Assembly (NCBI GenBank): GCA_038064415.1
Contig: JBBTTD010000003.1
Location: 2,597 to 66,596 of the forward strand
Direction of reading: 5' to 3'
Source of the DNA: Patescibacteria group bacterium
GTDB taxonomy: Bacteria; Patescibacteriota; Minisyncoccia; Phycocordibacterales; PALSA-1337
DNA: 64,000 bases
Positions 9,258-62,924 of this stretch are shown in pieces (position 1 is the stretch's first letter; the number at the start of each line of letters is the position of its first letter). The position numbers and the translations under genes were made by a program. A model generated the notes under the pieces. That model worked only from the letters and a program-made list of their open reading frames with translations. It searched no databases and was not told where the DNA came from.

Positions 9258-9271
9258 GATAAAGGAAAAGA

Positions 9272-9455
9272 AGCAACAAAAAGTACATGTGTTTTGATGT
9301 GCCTGCGGAACTCGCTTCTGAAATTACTAAATAAAAGGCTCAGGAATCACACAAAGCAAAGCTTTGGTGATTCCAACGCCATTCGCCTTTTATTAAGTAA
9401 TTTCTAGTCGCTCAGACAGTCCTCGGCAATCAAAACACATGTACTTTTTGTTGCT
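9272..9455 (+). repeat. Copy 1 of 125-nt structured repeat element (core 9302..9426) nested in a perfect 27-bp inverted repeat (9272..9298 / 9429..9455)
   Basis: Core begins CCTGCGGAACTC and ends CAGTCCTCGG; ~85-90% identical to cores at 38131..38255 and 47901..48025; lies between convergent genes. Confidence 0.8.
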
Positions 9456-9476
9456 CCTTAATTCTCCTTCTGTTTA

Positions 9477-12708: not shown

Positions 12709-13638
12709 TCAAAAAATGGATCTGAACCAATTTACAGAGTCGGGCCATGGCGCGAAAAACCCGACACTGGTCAGCACCTCCTGATGTCCTTCATAGGGGC
12801 CAGATTTGACACTAGCATAAATGACCCCCGGGATTCTGGATTTTTTCAAGATATGTTCCAGACGAGCCGAGAACACCGGTGGCCGATCGGAAGAATTGAA
12901 TTTAGTCGGATCAAACGAACCGCCGATGACTAATTGGCTCTGATCGGTAAAAGGAATGATAATTTGTTCTTGAATTCTGACCATTCCGATTCTATCATCC
13001 AGCGGAGTGACTATTCTGAAATTAGATCGAAGGATTGGCTTTTCACCCAATCGTCCAATGTCAGCGTCAATGTATGAGTATCCGTCCCACGGTCTTATCC
13101 CATATCGCAGTATATTTGTCTTGCGAGTTCTCTGCCACCGCGAATTTCCGATAGTCGCGGTTGATGGAGATGCCGAAGTCGGATCAAGGCGTTCTTCCGT
13201 GGTGTTGCCGATTGATCCACTCAAGAATCTAAAGAAAGATTTTTGTTCAAAATCTTCCCAATAATCTATTGACAGATTTGGCAGTGCCACGACAGACTCT
13301 CTCAAACTATCCAGAGCGGTATCAATAAACACATCTCTGCCGGTGTTAATGACGCGTTGATGGATCTCGTAGTTTTCTTTGTTTATTTTTCGAGTCCAAT
13401 TGAATGCCGACGGGCCGCCAAATCGGTCAAAAGAAATTTCCTGACCATTCTTTTCAATTTCTTGACGATACAGACTCCAAAAATTGTCATCCTGTTTTTT
13501 GGCGTTTAATTCGTACACCATTTTCGCATAGGCGACTGCCATCCGGTTGGTATTGGTCGTGCCAGCTACCAAATTAACTACTGTCGTAAGATACATTACT
13601 ATGACCGCTAAAGTCAGATAGATTTTTCTCATAATCAA
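12709..13638 (-). CDS. Secreted hypothetical protein
   Basis: ORF track; N-terminal signal peptide; no recognised domain. Confidence 0.35.
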   Translation of the reverse strand: MIMRKIYLTLAVIVMYLTTVVNLVAGTTNTNRMAVAYAKMVYELNAKKQDDNFWSLYRQEIEKNGQEISFDRFGGPSAFNWTRKINKENYEIHQRVINTGRDVFIDTALDSLRESVVALPNLSIDYWEDFEQKSFFRFLSGSIGNTTEERLDPTSASPSTATIGNSRWQRTRKTNILRYGIRPWDGYSYIDADIGRLGEKPILRSNFRIVTPLDDRIGMVRIQEQIIIPFTDQSQLVIGGSFDPTKFNSSDRPPVFSARLEHILKKSRIPGVIYASVKSGPYEGHQEVLTSVGFFAPWPDSVNWFRSIF

Positions 13639-13784
13639 TTCCCCGGTTGTGCTTTTTGCTTGTTTTCAATTTTACAAAAACTTCAAATATACTAACGCTA
13701 TTTAAAAAATCCGCAACCTTGACCTCTTTAATTTTCAATGATTAAGATTGCCTCACTCCAATTTTGGCACAGATAAATAAAAGA

Positions 13785-13804
13785 GGGAACCCGTTGCGGT
13801 TCCC
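13785..13804 (-). terminator. Rho-independent terminator of gene 13831..14118
   Basis: GGGAACC-CGTTGC-GGTTCCC hairpin followed by T-run on minus strand. Confidence 0.5.
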
Positions 13805-13830
13805 ACTGCTTTTGATTTCTTCGTGTTTGC

Positions 13831-14118
13831 TCAAGTTTTGAGCATGCGTTCAAATCTTTCAATGTATGTTCTCAAGAACTGTTGTTGAAGTTGAGGAGGA
13901 ATCACACTCAACATGTCTAGCATTGTTGAGGCGGGATTGAGTTGCGCGCACCACTTTTCCGTGGATCCACCCTCACCAATTTCGTGGCAAATTTTCCAGA
14001 ACAAACTTTCGTCGTAGTAGAGCTCCGGTTTGTTGGCAATAAGTTCTTCGCATTTCATTTGCACAAACAAAACGACAGACTTTTTTAGGGAACCAGTCCC
14101 GGTACTTGTTGAATCCAT
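13831..14118 (-). CDS. Hypothetical protein
   Basis: ORF track only. Confidence 0.3.
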   Translation of the reverse strand: MDSTSTGTGSLKKSVVLFVQMKCEELIANKPELYYDESLFWKICHEIGEGGSTEKWCAQLNPASTMLDMLSVIPPQLQQQFLRTYIERFERMLKT

Positions 14119-14184
14119 ATTATTACCTTTACACTGTCTTCCAAATACACTGTATCAGGGTCATAATTTTGTGTCAAATACCCC

Positions 14185-14214
14185 TTGACAGAATAGGTAG
14201 TGGTGTGCTATAAT
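14185..14214 (+). promoter_or_regulatory. Near-consensus sigma70-type promoter (TTGACA-18-TGcTATAAT)
   Basis: TTGACA at 14185-14190, extended -10 TGCTATAAT at 14206-14214; drives gene 14317..15360. Confidence 0.5.
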
Positions 14215-14316
14215 GGCCAAGTAAATAGGGCATTCCTGCATTCATGCAAATGGATGGGAAACGAGTCTTATCTTACGAGGCAAAAAGCACAAAACCAAAC
14301 GAAAGGACCTTTACAT

Positions 14317-15360
14317 ATGAAATTCACAAGAATATTGTTCGGCTTCATGAATGGCAATTACGATTGCAAAAATGGAGTCGGCATGGTGGCGGTGGACGAT
14401 CCCAATCTCAAAAGTGACATCAAAGTCACGAGGGAGAAGGGTCCGTTCTTCGTCGGTGCTGGCAATGAGAGTCCGTATTTCCTGAATGGGGAATATATCA
14501 AAGACCCTCCGATCAACATGACCGAAGTCGCACTTGAAGTAGCTGGGAGAGACGATGATCCCGTGGTCATTGCCTGGGGCTTGAAAAAGTCTTGGGACAA
14601 GACTCTACAGGTCATTGGTTCGCGTCCCCACTTCCGCGTCATGACTGAGAATCGGTTTAAGGGACAGATGATGTCTCATGAAGTTCGCGAAGTGAAGTCT
14701 TTTGAGGGTAACCTCAAGGATCTCGTCGCGACCTCGGCCAGAACCGGCGAATTCGTCAGCAAGACTGATAAATTCGCGCCTGTTTATCAGGCGATGAAAG
14801 GCATCACTGCTCTTAATCGGTTCCAGCGCCGGACCAAGAATGGTGCTACTCCCGCCGAAGATGTCTATGTTGACTGCCAAGATCCTCGACCATTTCCGGT
14901 CGGCGCGGTTTATCGGTTAACTCGCGTCGTTGACGGCAAAATGGCTGACAAGCTCGGCATCGGCACCGCTCTGGAACTCAACTTCCGTTATCCGCTGGGA
15001 GCTTCGACCGACAAACTCGCCAGGTTCAAGCCGGAAGAGTTGATCTGGGAAAAGCGGGAAGTGAAGCCGACAGAAATGATTCACAAAGTCCAGGAGATCT
15101 GGGTTGAAGTCGCTGACCCTCGTCCGAAACTTGAGCTTCCTGCTTCAATGAGGGTCAAGGTTGAGGAAAAATCACAGATTGCTGTCGTTGAAACTGTTGT
15201 TACCGCTCCAGCAACGGAGTCGGCGACAACCGCTTCTTCCGAGGTTCCGGCAACTGCTCCGATCAAGAAGTCCGTGGCAATGCCCAAGCGCCCCAAAAAG
15301 GTCTTGAGCACCAGAGTCAACGGGTTCGCGACGCTCGAGCAAGTACTCGTCATCGGATAG
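14317..15360 (+). CDS. Hypothetical protein (start chosen downstream of promoter; ORF-track start 14200 overlaps the -10 box)
   Basis: ORF track; GC content higher than genome average; acidic, Ala/Thr-rich C-terminal tail. Confidence 0.35.
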   Translation: MKFTRILFGFMNGNYDCKNGVGMVAVDDPNLKSDIKVTREKGPFFVGAGNESPYFLNGEYIKDPPINMTEVALEVAGRDDDPVVIAWGLKKSWDKTLQVIGSRPHFRVMTENRFKGQMMSHEVREVKSFEGNLKDLVATSARTGEFVSKTDKFAPVYQAMKGITALNRFQRRTKNGATPAEDVYVDCQDPRPFPVGAVYRLTRVVDGKMADKLGIGTALELNFRYPLGASTDKLARFKPEELIWEKREVKPTEMIHKVQEIWVEVADPRPKLELPASMRVKVEEKSQIAVVETVVTAPATESATTASSEVPATAPIKKSVAMPKRPKKVLSTRVNGFATLEQVLVIG

Positions 15361-15504
15361 CGTTATCAGATAGACAGTGTTGAAAATTCACGAAGGTCCA
15401 GCTACAAGTTGTGGCTGGCCTTTTTTATTATCCACAATTATTACACACGATTTCACCGAGACAGATCTGATGAAAATGTCGCTCTTTCTGCTATACTCTT
15501 ATTC

Positions 15505-17307
15505 ATGACCCAGAATCAAGCTTTGGACATTTTGAAGATGGGTAAGAATGTTTTTATAACCGGACCGGCAGGTTCGGGTAAAACATTTGTAGTCAATCAA
15601 TATATTAGATATCTGAAAGAACATGGAGTCGCGATTGGTATTACCGCCTCAACGGGAATTGCCGCTACCCATATGGGCGGTATAACTATTCATTCTTGGT
15701 CAGGGATGGGTTTGAAAAACAATATGAGCGAATATGACTTGGCTGACCTTTTGGAGAGGACTCAAGTAGTTCGTAGAATTAAAGAGGCTTCTGTGTTGAT
15801 TATTGATGAGGTTTCAATGTTGCATCATTTTCGTCTTGATACCTTAAATACAATCGCTCAACATGTTCGTAAAAATAAAGAGCCGTTTGGCGGTTTGCAA
15901 ATCGTGCTGTGCGGAGATTTTTTTCAACTTCCGCCAATCGCGAAATACGGTGAACCTGACACGCATTTTATATATAGATCAGAAGCTTGGCGTGATGGAA
16001 AATTTACCGTTTGTTATTTACATGAAAATTATCGCCATATTTCAGACGATATTCTTTTTGTCTTAAATGAAGTTCGTGCTGGAAAAGTCTCTGATGCGGC
16101 GAGGTCTCGGCTGAACGGCAGAAGAAATATAATTCAAAATAGTGATTCTGAATTTGGACCAACTCGCCTCTTTACTCACAATGTTGATGTGGATAAGGTC
16201 AATGATCTTGAACTCAACAAAGTTCAAGGTCATGAATCAACATATGAGATGACCTCAAAAGGTAAAAAATCTTTGGTAGATGGATTGAAAAAATCTTGTC
16301 TAGCTCCAACAAAACTTCGTTTGAAAAAAGGCGCTCGGGTAATGTGCGTCAAGAACAATTTTGATCAAGGTTATGTCAATGGGACTTTGGGCGTAGTCGT
16401 ATCTTGTGGTTACGGCATTGACCCAGTGATTCATACCGCTAGCACTCCAGATTTTCCAAGTGGTCGGCGAGTGACCATTGAGTTGGCTGATTGGACAATT
16501 GAAGATGATGGCAGAGTCTTGGCCAAAATCACTCAATATCCTTTGCGTTTAGCTTGGGCAATAACGGTTCATAAAAGTCAGGGCATGAGTCTAGATTCAA
16601 TTGAAGTTGATCTCTCTAAAGCTTTTGAGCCGGGTATGGGATATGTAGCACTGTCACGGGTCCGTACTTTGGCGGGCTTAAGTATTATTGGCATAAATGA
16701 AAATGCGCTAAAAGTTCATCCGGAGGTATTAGAGTATGACAAACATTTGCGCGAATTATCTGGAAAAGCTGAAAGCGTGATTGAGTATACTGACACAGCT
16801 GAAATAATCCGCACTCAAGAAGGATTTTTGGCAAAAGTGGCGCCACTGCACCGAATAGGTCGCAAGGCACAAGGTTCTAATTACAATGAGGGAAAACCAG
16901 AAAAAGTCTCGACATTTCAGAGAACAGTAGCTCTTATTCAAAAGCAAAAATCTGTGCTTGAAATCGCAAAGGAGCGAAAAAAGACGATTGAGACGATTAT
17001 TCACCATATTGAAAAATTGATTGAAGTTGGTTCAGATAGAGGCGGTCTGAATTTATCCGACATCTCATATTTGAAAAAAGAAATTTCCCCGATTCATTTT
17101 CTGAAAATTGAAAAAGCGCTTGAAGAAGTATCTCTTGAAAAAAATGCCAGTAATGATTCAGATGAGAATAAATCTAAGCCACCTCTACTTTCCGCGATAA
17201 AAAGAAAAGTTGAGCCGAACATCTCGTTTCGTGAGATTCAATTGGTTAGAGTTTTACTTGGGTATGTTAAGCGTGGTGAGCGAGTCAGCGACAGCGCGTC
17301 TCACTAG
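15505..17307 (+). CDS. Pif1/RecD-family 5'-3' DNA helicase with C-terminal extension
   Basis: Walker A GPAGSGKTF; motifs DEVSML, GGLQIVLCGDFFQLPP, TVHKSQGMSLD, ALSRVR; likely start at MTQNQ (ORF-track start 15409 probably too early). Confidence 0.65.
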   Translation: MTQNQALDILKMGKNVFITGPAGSGKTFVVNQYIRYLKEHGVAIGITASTGIAATHMGGITIHSWSGMGLKNNMSEYDLADLLERTQVVRRIKEASVLIIDEVSMLHHFRLDTLNTIAQHVRKNKEPFGGLQIVLCGDFFQLPPIAKYGEPDTHFIYRSEAWRDGKFTVCYLHENYRHISDDILFVLNEVRAGKVSDAARSRLNGRRNIIQNSDSEFGPTRLFTHNVDVDKVNDLELNKVQGHESTYEMTSKGKKSLVDGLKKSCLAPTKLRLKKGARVMCVKNNFDQGYVNGTLGVVVSCGYGIDPVIHTASTPDFPSGRRVTIELADWTIEDDGRVLAKITQYPLRLAWAITVHKSQGMSLDSIEVDLSKAFEPGMGYVALSRVRTLAGLSIIGINENALKVHPEVLEYDKHLRELSGKAESVIEYTDTAEIIRTQEGFLAKVAPLHRIGRKAQGSNYNEGKPEKVSTFQRTVALIQKQKSVLEIAKERKKTIETIIHHIEKLIEVGSDRGGLNLSDISYLKKEISPIHFLKIEKALEEVSLEKNASNDSDENKSKPPLLSAIKRKVEPNISFREIQLVRVLLGYVKRGERVSDSASH

Positions 17308-17380
17308 CTGGATCACTCCCATTGATTTTATTTTTGATTGATTGACCGACTTTATTAAGAATTAATTGATCAATAAAAAA

Positions 17381-17430
17381 TCTCGAGACATTGGGTGTCT
17401 CGAGAGGTGTGCTGGTTGACAAGGTCAACC
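17381..17430. terminator. Bidirectional terminator (two hairpins) between convergent genes
   Basis: TCTCGAGACA-TTGGG-TGTCTCGAGA and GGTTGAC-AAG-GTCAACC. Confidence 0.5.
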
Positions 17431-17808
17431 CAATTGGCTTTCTCGTCGTAAAAATTCTTTCACCCAAGACCCGTCAACACTTAAGACCTCATCAGATTCT
17501 TTCTCCCAGATGATGTGGGTTGCGATCCCGTCAATCTTGAATGGTTTGATCACCAATCGCATAGTGAAACTACTTCCTTTGTAGGTCACTTTAACTTCAA
17601 AAAGATAACCACTGACTCCAGAACTTTTTGTGCTTCTAAATGTCGTTGTGATTTTGCATCTGAAGTTAGGACTTCGGAGCTCTTCTTTTTTGGCTCGTGT
17701 TTTGATCATTTCGCCAGCCACAGTGGTGACTATGTTCACGATTTTTTGTACGGCATCATTGCTCACACACGCCCCAATCACTACACAATCCGCGACTAGT
17801 TGTTTCAT
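17425..17808 (-). CDS. Hypothetical protein
   Basis: ORF track only. Confidence 0.3.
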   Translation of the reverse strand: MKQLVADCVVIGACVSNDAVQKIVNIVTTVAGEMIKTRAKKEELRSPNFRCKITTTFRSTKSSGVSGYLFEVKVTYKGSSFTMRLVIKPFKIDGIATHIIWEKESDEVLSVDGSWVKEFLRRESQLG

Positions 17809-18008
17809 AGTTTGTGCTATTTGAAGGTTTTTGTTTTTACTCCAGTAACTTACTCCACGGAAAGATTACCACTATTGGTAATAGATGTCAACATCATTGA
17901 CTTTTCTGTTCAAATAATATATAGTAGTAATCTAATCAATCTCTCATCGTTTGCCCATGGTTAAGGGCCTTCAGTTGGGAATAATATAGCCCAACGGCTC
18001 AATAATTC

Positions 18009-19283
18009 ATGTATCAAAAGCATTTTAGAAGCGGAAGTAAGACTAGTACTAGTCGTCCATTTAACTATAGAAAACCAGCAGGACACGGCTCTTCAGGAGC
18101 TCGTGGTGGTTTTCATGGTAAACCGGCACATAGGGGTGGTCGCGGAGGTCGTGGTGGACGAGGTCCAGGAGGCGGATTTTCCAGGCACATTGATGTTTCA
18201 AAGTTTATCAACAAAGCAGTCATTACCGAAAAGACTGAACACTTCGTTCCCGACCACAGCTTCACTGATTTTCAGATTGATAATCGTCTGAAGACGAATG
18301 TTGCTACTAAAGGTTATTTTGTCCCTACGCCGATTCAAGATAAAACTATCCCACATATTATTCGCGGAGCGGATCTAGTAGGGATTGCCAATACGGGCAC
18401 AGGTAAAACCGCGGCTTTTTTGATTCCTCTAATCAATAAAATTTTAATTAGTTCACGCGAAAAAGTCTTAATTATTGTTCCGACTCGTGAATTGGCTCAA
18501 CAGATTGAACAAGAGTTCATGGCTTTTTCAAAACATCTCAACCTTTGGGCAGTCTGTTGTGTTGGTGGCGCGAGCATCGTGCCGCAAATGAAAGCACTTG
18601 GTCGTCCATACAATTTTTTGATTGGCACACCAGGTCGTTTGCGCGACCTGATTGAACGCAACAAGATTCGTTTAAGTGAGTATGCGACGGTAGTTCTTGA
18701 CGAAGCAGACCGCATGCTTGACATGGGATTTATTGCCGATGTTAAATTCATGGTTTCTCAAATGGCCAAACAGCGCCACACGCTTTTCTTTTCCGCCACA
18801 ATGTCTCGCGAAATTGAAGGACTGATAAAACAATTTCTGACTGATCCTGTGATGATTTCGGTCAAGACCGGCGACACCGCACAATTGGTTGATCAAGATG
18901 TGGTGCGTGTTCCCGTCGGTAAAAATAAGCTTGATGTCCTTCAAGATTTGTTAAATCAGTCCGGTTTTACTAAAGTGCTAATTTTCGGAAAAACTAAACA
19001 TGGTGTCCAAAGATTGACAGAAGATCTAAATAAGCGCGGTTTTTTGGCTGAAGCCATTCATGGCAATAAGAATCAAGGTCAACGCATGCGCGCCCTCAAA
19101 TCATTCAAGGATCATCGCGTAAAAGTTTTGGTTGCCACTGATGTGGCGGCTCGCGGTCTTGATATTTCCGGGATAACTCATGTTATTAATTTTGATATTC
19201 CCGCGACTTATGATGACTATATTCATCGTATCGGCAGAACGGGACGAGCGGGCAAAAAAGGGCAAGCCCTGACTTTTGTGTAG
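18009..19283 (+). CDS. DEAD-box ATP-dependent RNA helicase with N-terminal Arg/Gly-rich (RGG) region
   Basis: Q-motif FVPTPIQ, Walker A ANTGTGKT, DEAD, SAT, HRIGRTGRAG; N-terminal RGGFHGKPAHRGGRGGRGGRGPGGG. Confidence 0.8.
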   Translation: MYQKHFRSGSKTSTSRPFNYRKPAGHGSSGARGGFHGKPAHRGGRGGRGGRGPGGGFSRHIDVSKFINKAVITEKTEHFVPDHSFTDFQIDNRLKTNVATKGYFVPTPIQDKTIPHIIRGADLVGIANTGTGKTAAFLIPLINKILISSREKVLIIVPTRELAQQIEQEFMAFSKHLNLWAVCCVGGASIVPQMKALGRPYNFLIGTPGRLRDLIERNKIRLSEYATVVLDEADRMLDMGFIADVKFMVSQMAKQRHTLFFSATMSREIEGLIKQFLTDPVMISVKTGDTAQLVDQDVVRVPVGKNKLDVLQDLLNQSGFTKVLIFGKTKHGVQRLTEDLNKRGFLAEAIHGNKNQGQRMRALKSFKDHRVKVLVATDVAARGLDISGITHVINFDIPATYDDYIHRIGRTGRAGKKGQALTFV

Positions 19284-19321: not shown

Positions 19322-19427
19322 AAACTCAGTCATGTGAATTTTTAATGAGTTATGTTACTTCGCCACATTATTTTTGTTGAGGACTCTGTATAACTCATTA
19401 AAAATTCATATGACTGAGTTTTTTTAG
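19322..19427 (+). terminator. Long hairpin terminator (32-bp arms, 1 mismatch, 36-nt loop) followed by T-run
   Basis: AAACTCAGTCATGTGAATTTTTAATGAGTTAT ... ATAACTCATTAAAAATTCATATGACTGAGTTT then TTTTTT. Confidence 0.45.
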
Positions 19428-35693: not shown

Positions 35694-36476
35694 ATGAATC
35701 CATGGATACAATTAAGCATTGATTACGCAAATCAAAAGAATTATCTCGATGATCTTTTTCAAGTGTACCCAACTATTCCTGATGGGATTAGAGATATTGA
35801 TACAACATTATGGAAAAAAACTGAAAAAGCGTTCAAGGATCGTAAAAATGACGAACTTGTAGAGAGTCTATTGCAACTTGATCTTTTTCCGATAAAAGAT
35901 TCATACGTTGCTTATCTTAAGAGAGATAAGAAAGCAATGCAAAGAAATCCAGCAACAATTTCTCGCTTAGCAGGTCGTTTATATGGAATGGGATTGACTA
36001 GACTTTTTGAGCGTTGCTCCGAACCAAAAGAGACGAATCGTCAGATTGGCCCATTATTCCGTCGCTGGTTAAATAGAAAATCATTAGGCGTTGAGTCTTT
36101 AAAAGTAGAGCAATTTTTAGCCACGAAAGACAATGCAATTCTTGATGCTGGTGATATTGAAATGATGGGTTTTGCAAGAGAATATCTTAATTACAAACAT
36201 GGTAAAGGGCTAGATCTAGTTGCTAGATTTAATAATAAGTATGTTATTGCAGAAGCAAAATTTCTTACTGATTTTGGTGGACATCAAAATGCTCAGTTTA
36301 ATGACGCTATATCTACAATAAAAGCAAAGAATGTAAACGCTATTAAAGTCGCTATCTTAGATGGTGTTCTTTATATAAAAGGTAATAACAAAATGTATCG
36401 AGATATTACTACAACCCTGAAAAAAGAAAATATTATGAGTAGCCTTGTTCTTCGTGAATTTCTTTATCAAATATAA
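35694..36476 (+). CDS. Candidate Type II restriction endonuclease (PD-(D/E)XK) of an R-M pair
   Basis: GLDLVARFNNKYVIAEAKF = D...ExK catalytic motif; 5 bp upstream of a DNA methyltransferase; very AT-rich. Confidence 0.45.
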   Translation: MNPWIQLSIDYANQKNYLDDLFQVYPTIPDGIRDIDTTLWKKTEKAFKDRKNDELVESLLQLDLFPIKDSYVAYLKRDKKAMQRNPATISRLAGRLYGMGLTRLFERCSEPKETNRQIGPLFRRWLNRKSLGVESLKVEQFLATKDNAILDAGDIEMMGFAREYLNYKHGKGLDLVARFNNKYVIAEAKFLTDFGGHQNAQFNDAISTIKAKNVNAIKVAILDGVLYIKGNNKMYRDITTTLKKENIMSSLVLREFLYQI

Positions 36477-36481
36477 TTTAT

Positions 36482-46564: not shown

Positions 46565-47866
46565 ATGCCATATTTTCACTTATTTTCGGCCTTTACTAGC
46601 CATTTAGAGACTATTGTCGCTCAAGGTGGTTATATATTTCTATTCCTTACGACCATGCTTGAGGGCATACCACTTATAGGGATGGCTATACCAGGGCATG
46701 TAGCCATTATTATCGCGGGTTTTTTAGCTAAAATAGGCTTACTTGATTTGTGGCTAGTTCTTTTATTAGGTGTTGTGGGCGCGATGATTGGTGACTATAT
46801 CGGTTTTTATCTTGGCAGAAAATATGGATTGTCATTTATTGATCGTTTACGACCTTATTTTTTTATTACTGATCAGCATATTGAAAAAGCTAGCAATCTT
46901 CTAGCCAGACATACTGGCAAAGCCCTGATCATTGGTAGATTTAGTCCGGTAACACGACCATTGATGCCTTTTTTGGTCGGTGCCAGCAAGACATCGGAAA
47001 AGAGATTTTGGGTCTTTAATACTATTGGTGGAGCTAGTTGGGCGATTTTATCTGTCTTTATCGGATATATTTTTGGTGCTGGATATCATATTGCCGCTGG
47101 ATATCTTGGTAAATTCGCAATGTTTGCGATCGTTGTTTCAATCATCATTATCTGGGGTTATCATTTTGTAAATGTCAGATTTCACATCTTCAGGCGCTAT
47201 GAGCTGTTTATGCTGATATTAAACCTGTTTTCAATTTATGGTTTAGCCAGAACAATTCAAGATGCTCGTTTTACCATGATCAATCCGATTTGTTCCAGCA
47301 AAATTTGTACATTTGATGTTTATCTAAATCAATTTTTTGATGGAATTGACCGTATTCATCCATTTATTGTCACAATAAGTGAGTGGGTTACAAATATTGG
47401 TGGAACGGCCGTCATGACTGTTTTAGGGGTTTTGTTAATATTTTGGTTTTTGTTTCGCAAAAGATGGCGTTCCGCGGTAGTCACATTCATCTCTATTGGA
47501 TCTACAGGACTATTTCTTGGTTTGATGAAAGCATTCTTCATGCGCGCGCGTCCAGATAACGCTTTGATCTTGATTACAAACGATCCGAGTTTTCCTAGCG
47601 GTCATGCCGCCATGGTAGCAGCATTACTTGTGGTTGTGGCATATCTTTTTGCTCCGAAAATTAAATCACGATTTAAGCGTGAATTTATGATTGTGTTGTG
47701 TGTTCTTGCGATTATCGCGGTTGGTCTTTCAAGAGTTGTCTTGAATGTCCACTGGGCATCTGATGTTGTCGCTGGCTGGTCGTTGGGAATATTCTTTGCG
47801 ACGGCGTCGGTTTTACTTGTTAGGTATGTTGGAGTTTTGGTTGTCGGAAAAACAGATCGGAAATAA
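46565..47866 (+). CDS. Fusion protein: N-terminal DedA/SNARE-associated membrane domain + C-terminal PAP2 (type 2 phosphatidic acid / undecaprenyl-diphosphate phosphatase) domain
   Basis: DedA motifs GHVAIIIAGFLAK...GDYIGFYLGRKYG; PAP2 motifs KAFFMRARP, PSGHAAMVAAL, SRVVLNVHWASDVVAGWSLG. Confidence 0.65.
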   Translation: MPYFHLFSAFTSHLETIVAQGGYIFLFLTTMLEGIPLIGMAIPGHVAIIIAGFLAKIGLLDLWLVLLLGVVGAMIGDYIGFYLGRKYGLSFIDRLRPYFFITDQHIEKASNLLARHTGKALIIGRFSPVTRPLMPFLVGASKTSEKRFWVFNTIGGASWAILSVFIGYIFGAGYHIAAGYLGKFAMFAIVVSIIIIWGYHFVNVRFHIFRRYELFMLILNLFSIYGLARTIQDARFTMINPICSSKICTFDVYLNQFFDGIDRIHPFIVTISEWVTNIGGTAVMTVLGVLLIFWFLFRKRWRSAVVTFISIGSTGLFLGLMKAFFMRARPDNALILITNDPSFPSGHAAMVAALLVVVAYLFAPKIKSRFKREFMIVLCVLAIIAVGLSRVVLNVHWASDVVAGWSLGIFFATASVLLVRYVGVLVVGKTDRK

Positions 47867-48059
47867 TGTTTTTGAACCTTGTGGGTATTATTTTTTAGTA
47901 CCTGCGGAACTCGCTTCTTAAATTGCTAAGTAAAATGCTCAGGAATTACTCAAATCTTCGACTTGGTAATTCCAACGCCATTCGCATTTTACTAAGCAAT
48001 TTACAGTCGCTCAGATAGTCCTCGGTACTAAAAAATAATACCCACAAGGTTCAAAAACA
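47867..48059 (+). repeat. Copy 3 of 125-nt structured repeat element (core 47901..48025) nested in a perfect 34-bp inverted repeat
   Basis: TGTTTTTGAACCTTGTGGGTATTATTTTTTAGTA ... TACTAAAAAATAATACCCACAAGGTTCAAAAACA flank the conserved core. Confidence 0.8.
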
Positions 48060-48061
48060 GG

Positions 48062-49573
48062 CTATTTTTTAGTTATCAAAGATTTTCCCGTCATAGACTT
48101 GGGAATGTCAATTCCCAAAAGGTCTAATATTGTAGGCGCGATATCATAAAGAGCACCATCTTTTATAGAATATTCACTATCTGTAATGATGCAGGGGACT
48201 GGACTAGTAGTATGGGAAGTGTGGATAATTCCTGTGTTTGAATCAACATTAATTTCAGCGTTACCATGGTCTGCGGTAATCAAGGCGATGCCGCCTTTTT
48301 CTCCTAGAGTTTTAATGACTCGCTCCAGTTGCTTATCTGTAGTTTCAATGGCCGTAATAATCGCTGGAACATTGGCGGTATGTCCGACCATATCAGGATT
48401 GGCAAAATTTATGAAAATAAAATCCGTACCTCTTTCTATTTCTTTGATGGCGGCGTCGGCGATACTATCGGCGCGCATTTCCGGTGCTTGGTCATGAGTT
48501 TTAATATCTTTCCGGCTTGGAATCAAAATGTCTTGTTCTTTTTCATATGGATTTTCCAAACCACCGTTTAAAAAGTATGTGGCATGGGCGAATTTTTCAG
48601 TTTCAGCGATGCGAGCTTGGGATAGTCCAAAAGCTGAAATCTCTTTTCCTAAAGTTGTCTCAACTTTGTTTGGAGGAAAAGCCATGGCGCAAGTATAGTC
48701 TATGCAATATTCAGTTAGTGTCACAAACATAATGTTTTCTGATTTTGGTATTGCCATCATTTTCTGCGACAACATTCGAGCACGATCGGCGCGGAAATTG
48801 AAAAAGAACACAGCGTCATTATTTTTTATGGCACAACCACTTCCTTCTGGCGTCGCGCAAACGATTGGCTCCATTAATTCATCGCTTTTTCCATTTTTGT
48901 ATTGCTCCTCAATATATGCCGACGGTTTGATTTCACAGACATTTCCTTTGCAATCAAATATTGCCATTTCTACTTTAGCCAGACGATCCCAATTATTATC
49001 TCGGTCCATGGCGTAATATCTTCCAGAAATCGTGGCAATAAAGAAATTTGGACCAAGTCCAGCCAAGATCTTTTCTAATTCTTTAATATACTCCGAAGCG
49101 CTCTGTGGTGGTGTATCGCGTCCGTCAGTAAAAACATGGATTGCCACTTTTGGCACATTATTTTTTTTAGCTAGACGTAAGAATGCGTACAAATGATTTT
49201 GATGACTATGAACTCCGCCTGGACTAAGTAGACCTTGCACATGCAAAGTGGAATTGTATTTTTTGACATGATTAAATAGAGACAGAAAAGCCGGGCTTGT
49301 ATCAAATTCGCCAGAAGCAATTGCTTTATCAATCCTGGTTAAATCAGTATCTGCTGGTTTACCTGTTCCAATTGTCATATGTCCGACTTCACTATTGCCC
49401 ATTTGACCATCTGGTAGTCCTACGGCACTGCCTGAAGCTTTAAGCAGGGAATGCGGGTAAGCATTCCAAAGATAGTCAAAAAATGGTTTTTTTGAGGCGG
49501 CAATTGCGTTATTTTTTGTTTCTTCTCTATAACCCCAACCATCAAGGATGATGAGGGCGACGGGCTTTTTCAT
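48062..49573 (-). CDS. gpmI: 2,3-bisphosphoglycerate-independent phosphoglycerate mutase
   Basis: N-terminal MKKPVALIILDGWGYRE, metal-binding and Ser-phosphatase motifs; start corrected to 49573. Confidence 0.85.
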   Translation of the reverse strand: MKKPVALIILDGWGYREETKNNAIAASKKPFFDYLWNAYPHSLLKASGSAVGLPDGQMGNSEVGHMTIGTGKPADTDLTRIDKAIASGEFDTSPAFLSLFNHVKKYNSTLHVQGLLSPGGVHSHQNHLYAFLRLAKKNNVPKVAIHVFTDGRDTPPQSASEYIKELEKILAGLGPNFFIATISGRYYAMDRDNNWDRLAKVEMAIFDCKGNVCEIKPSAYIEEQYKNGKSDELMEPIVCATPEGSGCAIKNNDAVFFFNFRADRARMLSQKMMAIPKSENIMFVTLTEYCIDYTCAMAFPPNKVETTLGKEISAFGLSQARIAETEKFAHATYFLNGGLENPYEKEQDILIPSRKDIKTHDQAPEMRADSIADAAIKEIERGTDFIFINFANPDMVGHTANVPAIITAIETTDKQLERVIKTLGEKGGIALITADHGNAEINVDSNTGIIHTSHTTSPVPCIITDSEYSIKDGALYDIAPTILDLLGIDIPKSMTGKSLITKK

Positions 49574-50276: not shown

Positions 50277-53200
50277 CTATAGTCCTTTGACTCTTTCAAT
50301 CACAAATCCCTTTTCACCATTTCTAGTATTTATCGTTGCTTTAATGGCCAGACAACTATCTGGCATAATCAGCGCGCGAAATTCTCTGTAGACTCGAGGG
50401 AATACTACTGCTTCCGAAGAACCGGAAAAATCAGCTATGGTAATAAAAGCCATAGTTTCGTTATTTTTTGTTTGTACCAAACGGACTTCGTTTATGATTC
50501 CAGCTAATATGATTGATGCACCATCTTTCAGAGTCTCAAATGCTTTTTTTATATTTATGCCATTCTTGTCAATAATTGAACGATATTTTTCAAGTGGATG
50601 TCCAGAAATGTAGAGACCTAGAAGTTCTTTTTCCCAAGTTAATTTGTCGCGCATTTCTGCTAAAGGCGCGGGATTTAGACGCAAAGTCGGGACGCTAGAA
50701 GTGTCGGTCATTGTTCCAAAAAGGGAATTCTGGTCAGTGTGTTGATTGTTGCTTTCTTTATTATATCCAAGCAAAAGTTCAGTATTGGCAAGCATGACTC
50801 CACGATCTTCACCAAAACAATCCATAGCCCCCGCTTTAATTAACGACTCAAGAGATTTTTTGTTTAGATTTTTGTCTTTAATGCGATCAAGAAAATTTGC
50901 CAGTGAAGAGAATTTACCATTCTTTTTGCGTTCCTCAATAATAGCAGTTGATATTCCTTGCCCAAAGTTCTTAATAGTTACAAGTCCAAAGCGGATACGG
51001 TAATGATTATTGATTGGAGCAAGCGCATTTCCGCCTTGCTCATCTTTTATTACGGTAAACTGACTAAAACTCTCATTGATGTCTGGTGGCAGGACCGGAA
51101 TCCCAATACGCTTGCATTCAGCAATAGTCTCCGCTACTTTTTCCGTATCACCTTGTTCAGAAGTCAAAACGGCTGATAAGTATATTTCTGGAAAATGCGC
51201 TTTCAGATATGCGGTTATATAGGCGACACGACCATACGATACCGAGTGTGCTTTGTTAAATCCATAAGCCGCGAACGGCTCAATCCATCTCCAGATTTCT
51301 TTGGCTTTTTTCTCAGACCATTTACTGTGATTGATACAACCCTGGATAAATTTTTCCTTTTGTAGTCCCATTTCCTTTGGAATCTTCTTACCGACCGCTT
51401 TGCGGAATTTGTCCACCTCAATCCAGCTGTATCCAGCCAGATCATGCGCCATGATTAAAAGATCATCCTGATAAACTAGCACGCCATAAGTTTTTTTAAG
51501 AATTTTTTCCAGCGCAGGGTCAAGATATTTGATTTTTTTCTGATCATGTTTTCTTTTGATATATTCAGGGATAAATTGAATTGGTCCGGGTCGATAAAGT
51601 GCCACCATGGCGTTGATGTCATGAATCGTGCTGGGCTTCAAGTCTTTCAGGAATCGGGTCATACCATCTCCGTTTAATTGAAAGAGGTCAGCGGTTTCTC
51701 CGCGCGCCAACATTTCAAAAGTTTTCTTGTCATTTACAGGAATAGTTTCTGTGTCAATTAGAACGTCATCAATTTTCTTGATCCTCGCGACGGTATCGGC
51801 AATTATCGTCAGATTTTTCAAACCTAGAAAATCAAACTTCAACAGTCCGGCTTCCTCAATGGAATACATATCATATTGAGTGATGATTTTACCTTCTCCT
51901 TTGGGATCAAATTGCAGCGGTGTATAGTCGGTAAGCGCACTTGGCGATATGACTACGCCCGCGGCGTGCACTCCAATGTGACGAGCGCAACCTTCAATTT
52001 TTTTTGCCATATCAATGATTCGACGAGTATTTGGTTCTTCTTTGTACGCGGATTTCAATTCTGGAGTTTCATTCAAGGCGCGATCAATTGTCATTGGAAA
52101 ACCTTGCGAACCAATCGGGATCAGTTTGGAAATTCGGTCACCGATTTCATAAGGGAATTCCATAGCGCGAGCAACATCACGGACTGAACCACGCGCCGCC
52201 ATAGTTCCGAATGTACCGATTTGGGCGACTCTATCTGCGCCATATTTTTTGCGGACATAATCAATAACCTCGTCTCTACGATCATCGGCGAAATCCATGT
52301 CAATATCCGGAGGGGATGGACGGTCTGGATTCAAGAATCGCTCAAATGGGATTTCATATTCAATTGGATTGATATTCGTAATCCCAGCTAAATATGTAAC
52401 CATTGATCCGGAGACCGACCCTCTAATATTTGAGAGAATTTTATTTTCTCGAGCAAAACGAAGCATGTCTGCTACCACCAAAAAATACGGGGCATATCCT
52501 TTGTCTCTGATCACTTTGAGTTCATATTCGGCGCGTTTAACAATTTCTTCGGTTTTTTTTACATCTCGTTGGACAAATCCTTCAAAAACTATATGCCTAA
52601 GTTCATCGTCTGGCTTGCGACCACTCTCAATCGTCAGGTCGGGGAAGACCCATTTTCCTAAAATCAACTCAAGGTTGCATTGCTCAACGATTTTGGTTGT
52701 GTTTTCCAAAGCATCGGGCGAATCCCTGAATAATTCTTCTGCTCGTTCTGATGAGATGAATGAGAAGTCGTCTTCATCGCTGTCGGAAATTTTATCCGAT
52801 GCATCGCTATGGGAATTGACACGCACCAATGTTTCTCTAGCGAGACGATCGTCGGGTTTTATGTAATAAACATCATGAGCGGCCATTATGGGAATTTTCT
52901 GACTTTTAGCGAATTGAATCAATGTCTTCATGTTGGCTTCATGGCCATCAATTTCTGGGTGGTGTGTGATTTCTATGAACAGACGCGGATAAAAATGAAG
53001 GTCAGGCCTTGGGTGATTTGGTGTTAAGGCCTGACCTTCATTTTTCTGACCTTGCTGAAAAACTTTTTTATAAAATTCCGCAACCTCTTTCGCCTTGTCC
53101 TGATTCCTACTTTTTAGCGATTGAGCGATTTCACCTGAAAATGAAGGCGAAATGGCAACCAATCCCTCATTATATTTTTCCAAAAGCTCGCGATCTATTC

Positions 53201-54288: not shown

Positions 54289-54454
54289 TGAAAAACTGGC
54301 GGCAACAATCGGAATGATTGCTTAGATCCGCCAGTAAGACTCCTTAACAAACCAACTAATAGGTTGTCTAGGTTGCAGCCATAGACACGCCTCATTTTTA
54401 GCGCCCCCACAGTTATTGTTTGTTCTAAGGTTATTTTAGCACAAGTTTTGTCTA

Positions 54455-54496
54455 GATCCGTACCCCAGAAAGTGGACACTTTATGGGGTACGGATC
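54455..54496. repeat. Near-palindromic hairpin motif, copy A (13-bp stem, 16-nt loop)
   Basis: GATCCGTACCCCA-GAAAGTGGACACTTTA-TGGGGTACGGATC; a second copy at 55524..55555. Confidence 0.6.
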
Positions 54497-54658
54497 AAGA
54501 TATAGACAATCAAGAGTTTAAGCCAAGGTCTTGACGGATGTGATAGATATGGTATACTACCGCTAGATACCTCTCCCCACGTATCTAGACCGATGTAACG
54601 CACTGCCGTCTGAAACGGATAGCGCGGGCACGAAGCCCTTCGGCCTCTTGAATGGGGA

Positions 54659-55342: not shown

Positions 55343-55523
55343 ACCTGTCTGACAGTTTCACCGCCCGTGTCGCGTTTTGCGACCCGGGTGGTTTTCTTTT
55401 TAACTGTGGTTGCAAAAACACCATGGAGGAAAAATATTACTGTCCAAACCTTCCATGCTGCTTTTCTTTTCCCTGTAGTATATTTTGGCATTGGTTTATG
55501 CCGCGCCTCTGGCGCACTGATCT

Positions 55524-55555
55524 GTACCCCACAAAGTGTCCACTTTATGGGGTCC
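55524..55555. repeat. Near-palindromic hairpin motif, copy B, immediately downstream of tRNA-Leu (minus strand)
   Basis: GTACCCCACAAAGTGTCCACTTTATGGGGTCC; ~90% identical to copy A (in either orientation because the motif is palindromic). Confidence 0.6.
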
Positions 55556-60472: not shown

Positions 60473-60473
60473 A

Positions 60474-60506
60474 AAGGCCGAATAGAACGTGTTCTATTCG
60501 GCCTTT
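60474..60506. terminator. Bidirectional terminator (14-bp perfect stem)
   Basis: AAGGCCGAATAGAAC-GTG-TTCTATTCGGCCTT between convergent genes. Confidence 0.6.
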
Positions 60507-62520: not shown

Positions 62521-62768
62521 TTCCCCTCCACCCTCACCTCCGTAATTTTCAAAAAATCCTCTAGAATTCCTGTCAATTTTTCAACCGACGCTTCTGACAT
62601 GGTACAAAGAAAAGACACTTCAACGTGCTATTAGTTCCAAATACAAACCTGATTTTTCGGCGACTTTTGTATACAAAAAATAATAATAACTATTTTCTTT
62701 ATTTTTTATTCCTCCACCCTCACCTCCGTAATTTTCAAAAAATCCTCTAGTATTTCCGTCAATTTTCC
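62521..62768. repeat. Two ~60-nt direct repeats (62521..62582 and 62707..62768) separated by 124 bp
   Basis: Shared CCTCCACCCTCACCTCCGTAATTTTCAAAAAATCCTCTAG(A/T)ATT(C/T)C(T/C)GTCAATTTT. Confidence 0.7.
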
Positions 62769-62924
62769 GACAGATTTTTCAGATTCTTTCAACACTTTCT
62801 GTAGTTCCTCGCAACCACGCACACGAATCTTTTCTCCACTTTTGTCGTTCTCATCACCACCCACCCCCTTTCGTATCTATTCCAACTGCCACCGCAGGGC
62901 AATCAACGGTGTCCGTAAATCATG

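Follow-up and report, generated by a model that had tools for sequence, protein, structure and literature searches.

The window that we analyzed, a 64,000-nt stretch of a groundwater Patescibacteria genome, contains a long inverted repeat with a structured centre between its convergent DedA-PAP2 and gpmI genes. The initial annotation described this feature as the third copy of a repeat (copy 3), bracketed by a 34-mer and its exact reverse complement, and we found both sequences where they were claimed to be, at 47867-47900 and 48026-48059 (0 matches expected from 100 shuffles). The inverted repeat is 2 bp longer per side than described, with arms of 36 nt (47867-47902 and 48024-48059) that are 100% complementary and a centre of 121 nt between them, and the 34-mer has no second occurrence anywhere in the window. 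The setting between convergent genes holds as well: the DedA-PAP2 stop codon ends at 47866, the gpmI stop codon (minus strand) is 48062-48064, and copy 3 occupies the whole spacer except for 2 nt. The parts of the locus are the following.

47867-47888, + strand: distal part of the left arm (TGTTTTTGAACCTTGTGGGTAT), which begins right after the DedA-PAP2 stop codon
47889-47899, + strand: first copy of a direct repeat (TATTTTTTAGT), in the part of the left arm nearest the core, 11/11 identical to 48063-48073
47902-48024, + strand: conserved 123-nt core (CTGCGGAACTC ... AGTCCTCG), 77-90% identity across five copies
48024-48059, + strand: right arm, exact reverse complement of 47867-47902 (36/36 complementary)
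48060-48062, + strand: GGC filler leading from the right arm to the outer direct repeat; copies 1, 2 and L006 (below) end in ...AGTCCTCGGC
48063-48073, + strand: second copy of the direct repeat (TATTTTTTAGT), whose minus strand supplies the Thr-Lys-Lys codons and bases one and two of the gpmI stop

With the direct repeat set in brackets, the layout is TAA-TGTTTTTGAACCTTGTGGGTAT[TATTTTTTAGT]AC-C-core-G-GT-ACTAAAAAATA-ATACCCACAAGGTTCAAAAACA-GGC-[TATTTTTTAGT]TATCAAAG, and the right arm holds an inverted copy of the direct repeat at 48027-48037. Folding of the 193-nt unit gave -90.4 kcal/mol on the + strand and -98.8 kcal/mol on the - strand, with a z of about -16.7 on either strand, a stability that 0/200 shuffles matched.

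Fold-back chimeras are a known amplification artefact, and the arms could be supposed to be a chimeric inverted duplication arising from assembly or amplification, the more so as short-k Logan contigs stop 30 nt into the arm. This explanation is almost certainly wrong. The copy 3 locus is identical in independent Hainich groundwater assemblies from wells H41 and H51 (L007 and L008), and another copy of the repeat, L019, is identical in five assemblies from different projects; the wells and projects differ and yet the structure is the same. The element lies midway along contigs that measure 110-124 kb. Since the same sequence recurs in independent assemblies, copy 3 is not an assembly artefact. 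The Logan contigs in question, L009 and L010, end exactly 30 nt into the left arm (window 47896), which implies that short-k assemblies break at such inverted repeats and that these elements are under-represented there. Strain L008, which is 99.79% identical, has zero SNPs in the element and is hence uninformative on polymorphism.

Copy 3 belongs to a family of five independent copies: three in the window, all on the + strand, and two outside it (L003/L019 and L006) that were found by core pattern scans of public collections. The copies in the window are as follows.

9268-9459, + strand: copy 1, core 9303-9425, between convergent SWIB and VanY-like genes
38112-38294, + strand: copy 2, core 38142-38264, 50 nt downstream of the RNase P RNA and upstream of murJ
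47867-48059, + strand: copy 3, between convergent DedA-PAP2 and gpmI

The copy in L003, which comes from a MAG labelled Saccharibacteria and is identical to L019-L023, lies between convergent genes at a DHFR-like/rplK junction, and the copy in L006, another Hainich contig, lies between divergent genes, at a distance of 27 nt from the start codon of hisS. The contexts are convergent three times, tandem once and divergent once. Each copy is 180-193 nt long and free of ORFs, and the family is multi-copy and dispersed (3 in 64 kb plus 2 on other contigs).

The core of 123-125 nt forms a nested hairpin, whose helices in copy 3 are P2 (47919-47938/47984-48003) and P3 (47942-47973), and it contains the invariant unpaired blocks CTGCGGAACTC, TTCCAACGCCATTCGC (47970-47985 in copy 3) and CTCAnAnAGTCCTCG. 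Across the five sequences its 42 pairs are 97.6% paired and 11 of them have changed on both sides, which 0/500 shuffles equalled, while one-sided G.U occurs in one cell only. The arms (27-36 bp, 94-100% complementary) are sequence-unrelated between copies. Those of copy 1 (9268-9298/9429-9459) are 31 nt long and 97% complementary, with 3 more core-adjacent pairs and a 1-nt bulge, and those of copy 2 (38112-38142/38264-38294) are 31 nt long and 94% complementary. What the arms share is confined to the vicinity of the core, which is preceded by T4-7, 4-6 nt and (G)CC and followed by GG(C), 4-6 nt and A4-6; in 5/5 copies the left arm has this T4-7 run at a distance of 4-6 nt from the core. The termini of the element in copies 1, 2 and L006 are GCC-TGCGG...CCTC-GGC (GCCTGCGGAAC...AGTCCTCGGC), and the L003 copy is short of 2 terminal nucleotides.

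A covariance model gave the family copies 195-201 bits and detected no further copies in ~400 kb of window and fetched relatives' loci, and 8 kb past the right end of the window likewise held no additional copy. The core pattern scans returned 1 true match and 4 chance matches in GC-rich coding DNA from genome contigs, 1 match from metagenome contigs and zero from viral contigs; these scans used exact-match patterns and probably under-sample the family. No match to the core was found in phage and plasmid records, and the window contains no solo termini and no longer element with the same ends. Among the window ORFs of at least 140 aa, neither those scanned nor those that already had Pfam calls included a transposase, integrase or reverse transcriptase, and none appeared in the Pfam calls of the fetched element-bearing loci. 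One relative without the element (L025) has a 332-aa reverse-transcriptase (RVT_1) gene at 16922-17920, which is missing from the otherwise syntenic L024.

Strong core covariation together with invariant unpaired blocks could indicate a family of structured noncoding RNA genes or cis-acting RNA elements, in which P1 is constrained only in its pairing and diverges by compensatory change, and mobility plays no part. The very stable fold on either strand agrees with this, as does a same-strand upstream gene in 4/5 copies, from which co-transcription would be possible. However, the element has no promoter, one of its contexts is a divergent promoter region, and it has no Rfam match: at gathering thresholds only RNase P and tRNAs were found in the window, and a permissive scan matched the element only to plant miRNA-hairpin models, at 55 bits versus a 144-bit threshold. 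It is also missing at the syntenic sites of relatives and from ~250 kb of their DNA, and it is associated with direct repeats that mark insertion. Furthermore, arms that are unrelated and yet nearly mismatch-free, beside cores that are 77-90% identical and a single G.U cell, are unlike the outcome of gradual compensatory drift. We consider resident RNA quite unlikely. The varied contexts and the absence from relatives instead argue for a sequence that is mobile and dispersed, and against a dedicated regulator, and we think it probable that copy 3 is a mobile insertion, as opposed to an ancestral palindrome or a resident RNA gene.

The initial annotation had envisaged insertion into a pre-existing palindrome, or a target-site duplication in inverted orientation around one. 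In its fullest form, the first of these ideas holds that the core was inserted at the apex of a palindromic bidirectional terminator, the arms being the split halves of the old hairpin, and it implies an intact 72-bp site, TGTTTTTGAACC...AGTAC/GTACT...GGTTCAAAAACA, at the DedA/gpmI junction. We compared orthologous junctions. The DedA/gpmI synteny is kept in relatives, the closest DedA-PAP2 orthologues to the window organism, a Patescibacteria/Paceibacterota-like bacterium, being 63-66% identical; the stop codons are 1 nt apart in L013, and the genes are separated by an unrelated 115-nt spacer in L017 and L018 and by 365 unrelated nt in L011. The DHFR-like/rplK junction is 218 nt long with the element, in five assemblies, and 183, 155, 97, 67 and 45 nt long in relatives with 79-82% DHFR identity. 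Neither core nor long palindrome was present at this junction in four such lineages, whose spacers hold nothing beyond short terminators (arms of 9-17 bp) or sequence that is otherwise unrelated. L029-31 and L035-37 have a common ordinary terminator there, AAAAAATAA(C)GCC-TRTA-GGCATTATTTTTT-ATATTTTATA, and in L034 (~2040-2125) the spacer holds a different G+C-rich sequence of ~80 nt (CCCTTGCCCTTCGTAGCTCGCGACC...), by eye partly self-complementary. The DHFR/rplK spacer seems to be a recurrent landing site.

Insertion into a palindrome of 68-72 bp is thus unsupported, as no long palindrome was found at the DedA/gpmI or DHFR/rplK junctions of relatives; in place of an empty palindrome these fairly distant genomes show stops 1 nt apart, unrelated spacers or terminators of 9-17 bp. 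Several features of the window would suit a split hairpin. Uninterrupted perfect palindromes with 16-24-nt arms occur in it, one of them (60473-60506) takes up precisely the stop-to-stop spacer of a convergent gene pair, as the arms of copy 3 do, and 3/5 copies of the element lie between convergent genes and 3/5 have no direct repeat. On the other hand, no uninterrupted palindrome in the window has arms longer than 24 nt, and the element's arms of 27-36 bp exceed all of them; relatives' junctions have arms of at most 17 bp or no spacer. The T-run lies on the inner side of the arms, which is the opposite of the terminator polarity (A-tract, stem, T-tract), copy 2 and L006 are not in terminator positions, and a split hairpin leaves both the GGC filler and the third, direct copy of the 11-12-mer unexplained. 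We regard a pre-existing palindrome as unlikely, though conceivable for the copies that have no direct repeat, intact palindromes in convergent spacers being present in this genome.

The window also contains other palindromes and repeats. A compact bidirectional terminator at 60473-60506 has a stem of 16 bp and a loop of 2 nt and takes up exactly the room that two convergent stop codons leave, beginning right after one and overlapping the other by 2 nt. The dnaE ORF contains an inverted repeat (52991-53045) that is perfect over 20 nt and encloses a 15-nt loop. It is translated in frame as an insertion (QGQKNEGQALTPNHPRPDLHFYP) within a variable loop of the protein, and this insertion is absent in the L013 orthologue and different in L015. 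Two near-perfect palindrome copies of ~36-50 nt (ACCCCAnAAAGTGnnCACTTTATGGGGT; 54451-54500 and 55518-55553) flank a 1-kb segment with a hypothetical gene without Pfam match, and the second abuts two tRNA genes. A hairpin at 19322-19421 has 32-nt arms (97%), each partly self-complementary, a 36-nt loop and a T8 tail, and lies downstream of an unannotated 424-aa ORF (18009-19283). Its loop has the motif GAGGACT, and we considered whether it might be a decayed copy of the element, but rejected this because the motif is misplaced on either strand. Two direct repeats of 73 nt, 86% identical and 186 nt apart, occupy 62525-62783, where there is no convincing ORF. Among the coding regions, 12709-17307 holds a PIF1-like helicase (15409-17307) whose C-terminus carries an HTH_40 domain, preceded by two ORFs without Pfam match, and 35694-38061 encodes a Tsp45I-like type II restriction enzyme and an N4/N6 DNA methylase directly upstream of the RNase P RNA; since in relatives murJ is immediately preceded by a TPR gene instead, the block has the look of an insertion.

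How the arms arose is indicated by the direct repeats, which are 11 nt long in copy 3 and 12 nt long in L003/L019. The layout in L019 is taa-TATAACAGTCTCATT-AAAGCAGAAGGCTTGTT[CTTTTTTAGATT]C-core(rc)-G-AATCAAAAAAAGAACAAGCCTTCTGCTTT-GCC-[CTTTTTTAGATT]TTAGA-tta, and its geometry is that of copy 3: one copy of the repeat is core-proximal within its arm, and the second comes exactly 3 nt past the outer end of the opposite arm. Measured against random 45-mers from the window, and with the geometry not counted, the chance of such a repeat is P ~0.003 for copy 3 and ~0.001 for L019. The filler of 3 nt, which is GGC in copy 3 and, read in the same direction, GCC in L019, equals the terminal trinucleotide of copies 1, 2 and L006. 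In copy 3 we take it to be the last three bases at the element's own 3' end, moved to the outside. Its C gives the third base of today's gpmI stop codon (TAG). Because the outer repeat of copy 3 encodes the last gpmI codons (the minus-strand translation of 48062-48097 is SMTGKSLITKK followed by the stop), it is native. Joining 47867-47888 to this outer repeat regenerates a gpmI end that reads SLITKK-stop, and excising the element together with the inverted copy leaves a 21-nt spacer and a gpmI gene that ends in SLITKK with TAA as its stop in place of TAG. We infer that 47867-47888 is native spacer, reaching from the DedA-PAP2 stop to the ancestral gpmI stop, and, from the geometry of the direct repeats and the GGC, that the right arm was newly synthesised as an inverted copy of the upstream flank.

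The two direct copies in L019 agree at 12/12 positions, and the inverted copy departs from both at a single base. This pattern would most simply result from a duplication followed by an imperfect reverse-complement copy, which fits better than a pre-existing hairpin. A hairpin of 11-12 bp as the source of the direct repeats is less parsimonious, since it needs a chance 3-nt G/C filler at two loci and, further, a specific back-mutation in L019. A direct target-site duplication made up of palindromic junction bases (e.g. GTAC) was also considered and set aside as uninformative, as any cut at a dyad yields such a pattern. The arm, repeat and downstream sequence of L019 (GGCTTGTTCTTTTTTAGATTTTAGA) match the 3' half of the relatives' terminator and the bases after it (GGCATTATTTTTTATATTTTATA) at 15/17 positions in the local alignment (p ~0.01), a weakly supportive likeness. 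Direct repeats were searched for in copies 1, 2 and L006, and none was detectable; copy 2 has GGC after its right arm, but no direct repeat. Either the length of the duplication varies, or the repeats of these three copies were overwritten, or the two positive cases mislead.

The inverted target duplication of the initial annotation fares better in the light of these results: one arm does look like native flank and the other like a reverse complement copied from it, and there is in addition a direct target-site duplication of 11-12 nt, which had escaped notice. Arms of 27-36 nt, unique to each copy, are also within the range of CRISPR spacers, and could conceivably have been imported as spacer-like or guide sequences from a phage or donor site and not taken from the local flank. 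We judge this very improbable, given that the arms have no match elsewhere in the window or in viral contigs, and that in copy 3 and L019 the proximal 11-12 nt of one arm are the same as the native flank next to the element.

These observations can be assembled into a model in which a non-autonomous mobile hairpin element inserts with a target-site duplication and acquires an arm by fold-back copying of its upstream flank, to which we assign a probability of roughly 0.55. The mobile unit would be a DNA of ~125 nt with the termini GCC...GGC, a conserved nested hairpin and asymmetric, sequence-conserved internal loops, the latter presumably forming the recognition surface for an enzyme acting in trans. 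Insertion would take place ~5 nt downstream of a T-run, in copy 3 within the last three gpmI codons, and would yield a direct target-site duplication of 11-12 nt that in copy 3 rebuilt the end of gpmI. At or soon after insertion, synthesis proceeding through flank, repeat and core would reach the base of the terminal stem and fold back on the nascent strand, copying ~30-33 nt of repeat and upstream flank in reverse complement before rejoining the template at the GGC. The expected product is flank-repeat-core-(inverted repeat + inverted flank)-GGC-repeat-downstream, in which a perfect, locus-specific arm has been made and the last three bases of the element (GGC) have been pushed outside it. 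The empty DedA/gpmI site would have read ...GGGTAT-TATTTTTTAGT-TATC..., with a 21-nt spacer and TAA as the gpmI stop. Were the point of return further downstream, the copy would replace the second repeat, and this would explain copies 1, 2 and L006.

The order of events, the fold-back step, DNA and not RNA as the relevant molecule, and mobilisation in trans are all deduced from the comparison of sequences; for DNA as the acting form, towards which we lean, the few G.U intermediates and the lack of strand preference in context speak. Template switching along the nascent strand is a documented maker of perfect stems and expander of inverted-repeat arms (PMC8794818, PMC10710096, PMC13100816), and arm pairing that is 94-100% Watson-Crick is the expectation for templated copying. 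As such a switch would require, relatives are without the repeat and the arm has a copy of native gpmI coding sequence, on ancestral states that are reconstructed from distant relatives, the nearest being 63-66% identical for the window lineage and 79-82% for the L019 lineage. Microhomology at the point of return to the template was not evident. The other perfect palindromes in the same genome, among them the one in dnaE that L013 lacks, are consistent with an active palindrome-forming process. Because sporadic replication errors do not explain an arm length of 27-36 bp in 5/5 copies, either a built-in step or selection is implied.

The duplication puts a T-run 3-4 nt after the new giant hairpin, and a terminator-like arrangement is thereby recreated with each insertion. 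Hairpin and T-run together could terminate transcription between convergent genes, likely as a side effect. If the model is true, a tiny noncoding element makes long, perfect, locus-specific inverted repeats in one step, which bears on the origin of long hairpins and of new structured RNAs, on the tolerance of mobile DNA in very compact genomes (the last codons and stop of gpmI having been rebuilt), and on repeat finders and assemblers, which would miss such elements or break at their arms. The conserved ~125-nt structure with invariant loops implies a putative protein partner in Patescibacteria. A bolder proposal, which we regard as doubtful, is that the family represents an undescribed class of mobile element that builds its long terminal inverted repeats anew from the target flank by self-primed fold-back synthesis at each insertion; if so, every insertion installs a giant hairpin and a T-run, a portable terminator, in the compact genomes of Patescibacteria.

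Several known systems share parts of this behavior. Class C group II introns insert after terminator hairpins, and IS1397 and ISKpn1 insert in REP loops. Our element resembles these in its insertion by a terminator-like T-run in gene-end spacers, a low-harm niche, but it is without intron or IS coding capacity and has no Rfam group II intron match, and its palindrome seems to be a product of the event, whereas those elements use one as the target. Non-LTR retroelements insert by target priming, with a T-rich nick site, variable-length duplications and 5' truncation. The T-run at the target, the duplications of 0-12 nt and the 2 terminal nucleotides missing from L003 recall this, as a resemblance only, although the element has no poly(A) tail and no reverse transcriptase is found at element-bearing loci. 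Integron attC sites have conserved ends and a variable centre, while the element has a conserved centre and variable ends. An intrinsic terminator is a short G+C-rich stem with a small loop and a T-tract, unlike the 36-bp A+T-rich stem and 121-nt interior of copy 3, and a consensus scan for intrinsic terminators found none on the element; T6 does follow the hairpin at 3-5 nt in copy 3 and L019, and terminator-like activity is possible.

Template-switch mutations (PMC8794818, PMC10710096, PMC13100816) are alike in that a one-step reverse-complement copy of adjacent sequence gives a perfect stem, that a quasi-palindrome nucleates the event and that the ancestral state is without the repeat. They differ in being sporadic and local, whereas here 5/5 copies of a mobile sequence have arms in the narrow range of 27-36 bp, which suggests that the arm-building step is coupled to insertion or selected for.

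The closest likeness in general behavior is to bacterial MITEs and other small repeats (Correia, ERIC, RUP, BOX and RPE; PMC3184786 and general knowledge), which are likewise under 300 bp, noncoding, dispersed between genes, hairpin-forming, near gene ends and without a gene of their own; the direct target-site duplication in two copies of the element is a further point in common. In MITEs a direct duplication of fixed length flanks each copy; in our family the duplication measures 11 nt for copy 3 and 12 nt for L003/L019, and none was detectable in copies 1, 2 and L006. Classical MITEs have the same terminal inverted repeats in all copies, in contrast to our element, whose copies share only GCC/GGC and the T-run/A-run, whose long inverted repeat is unique to each locus and flank-derived, and for which no autonomous partner is known. 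Such acquisition of arms from the flank is unusual for a mobile element, and the arms were most likely copied in reverse from the neighbouring DNA. The element falls outside every Rfam, attC, REP and terminator class tested, and it is MITE-like in its behavior, yet without the shared terminal inverted repeats that define MITEs.
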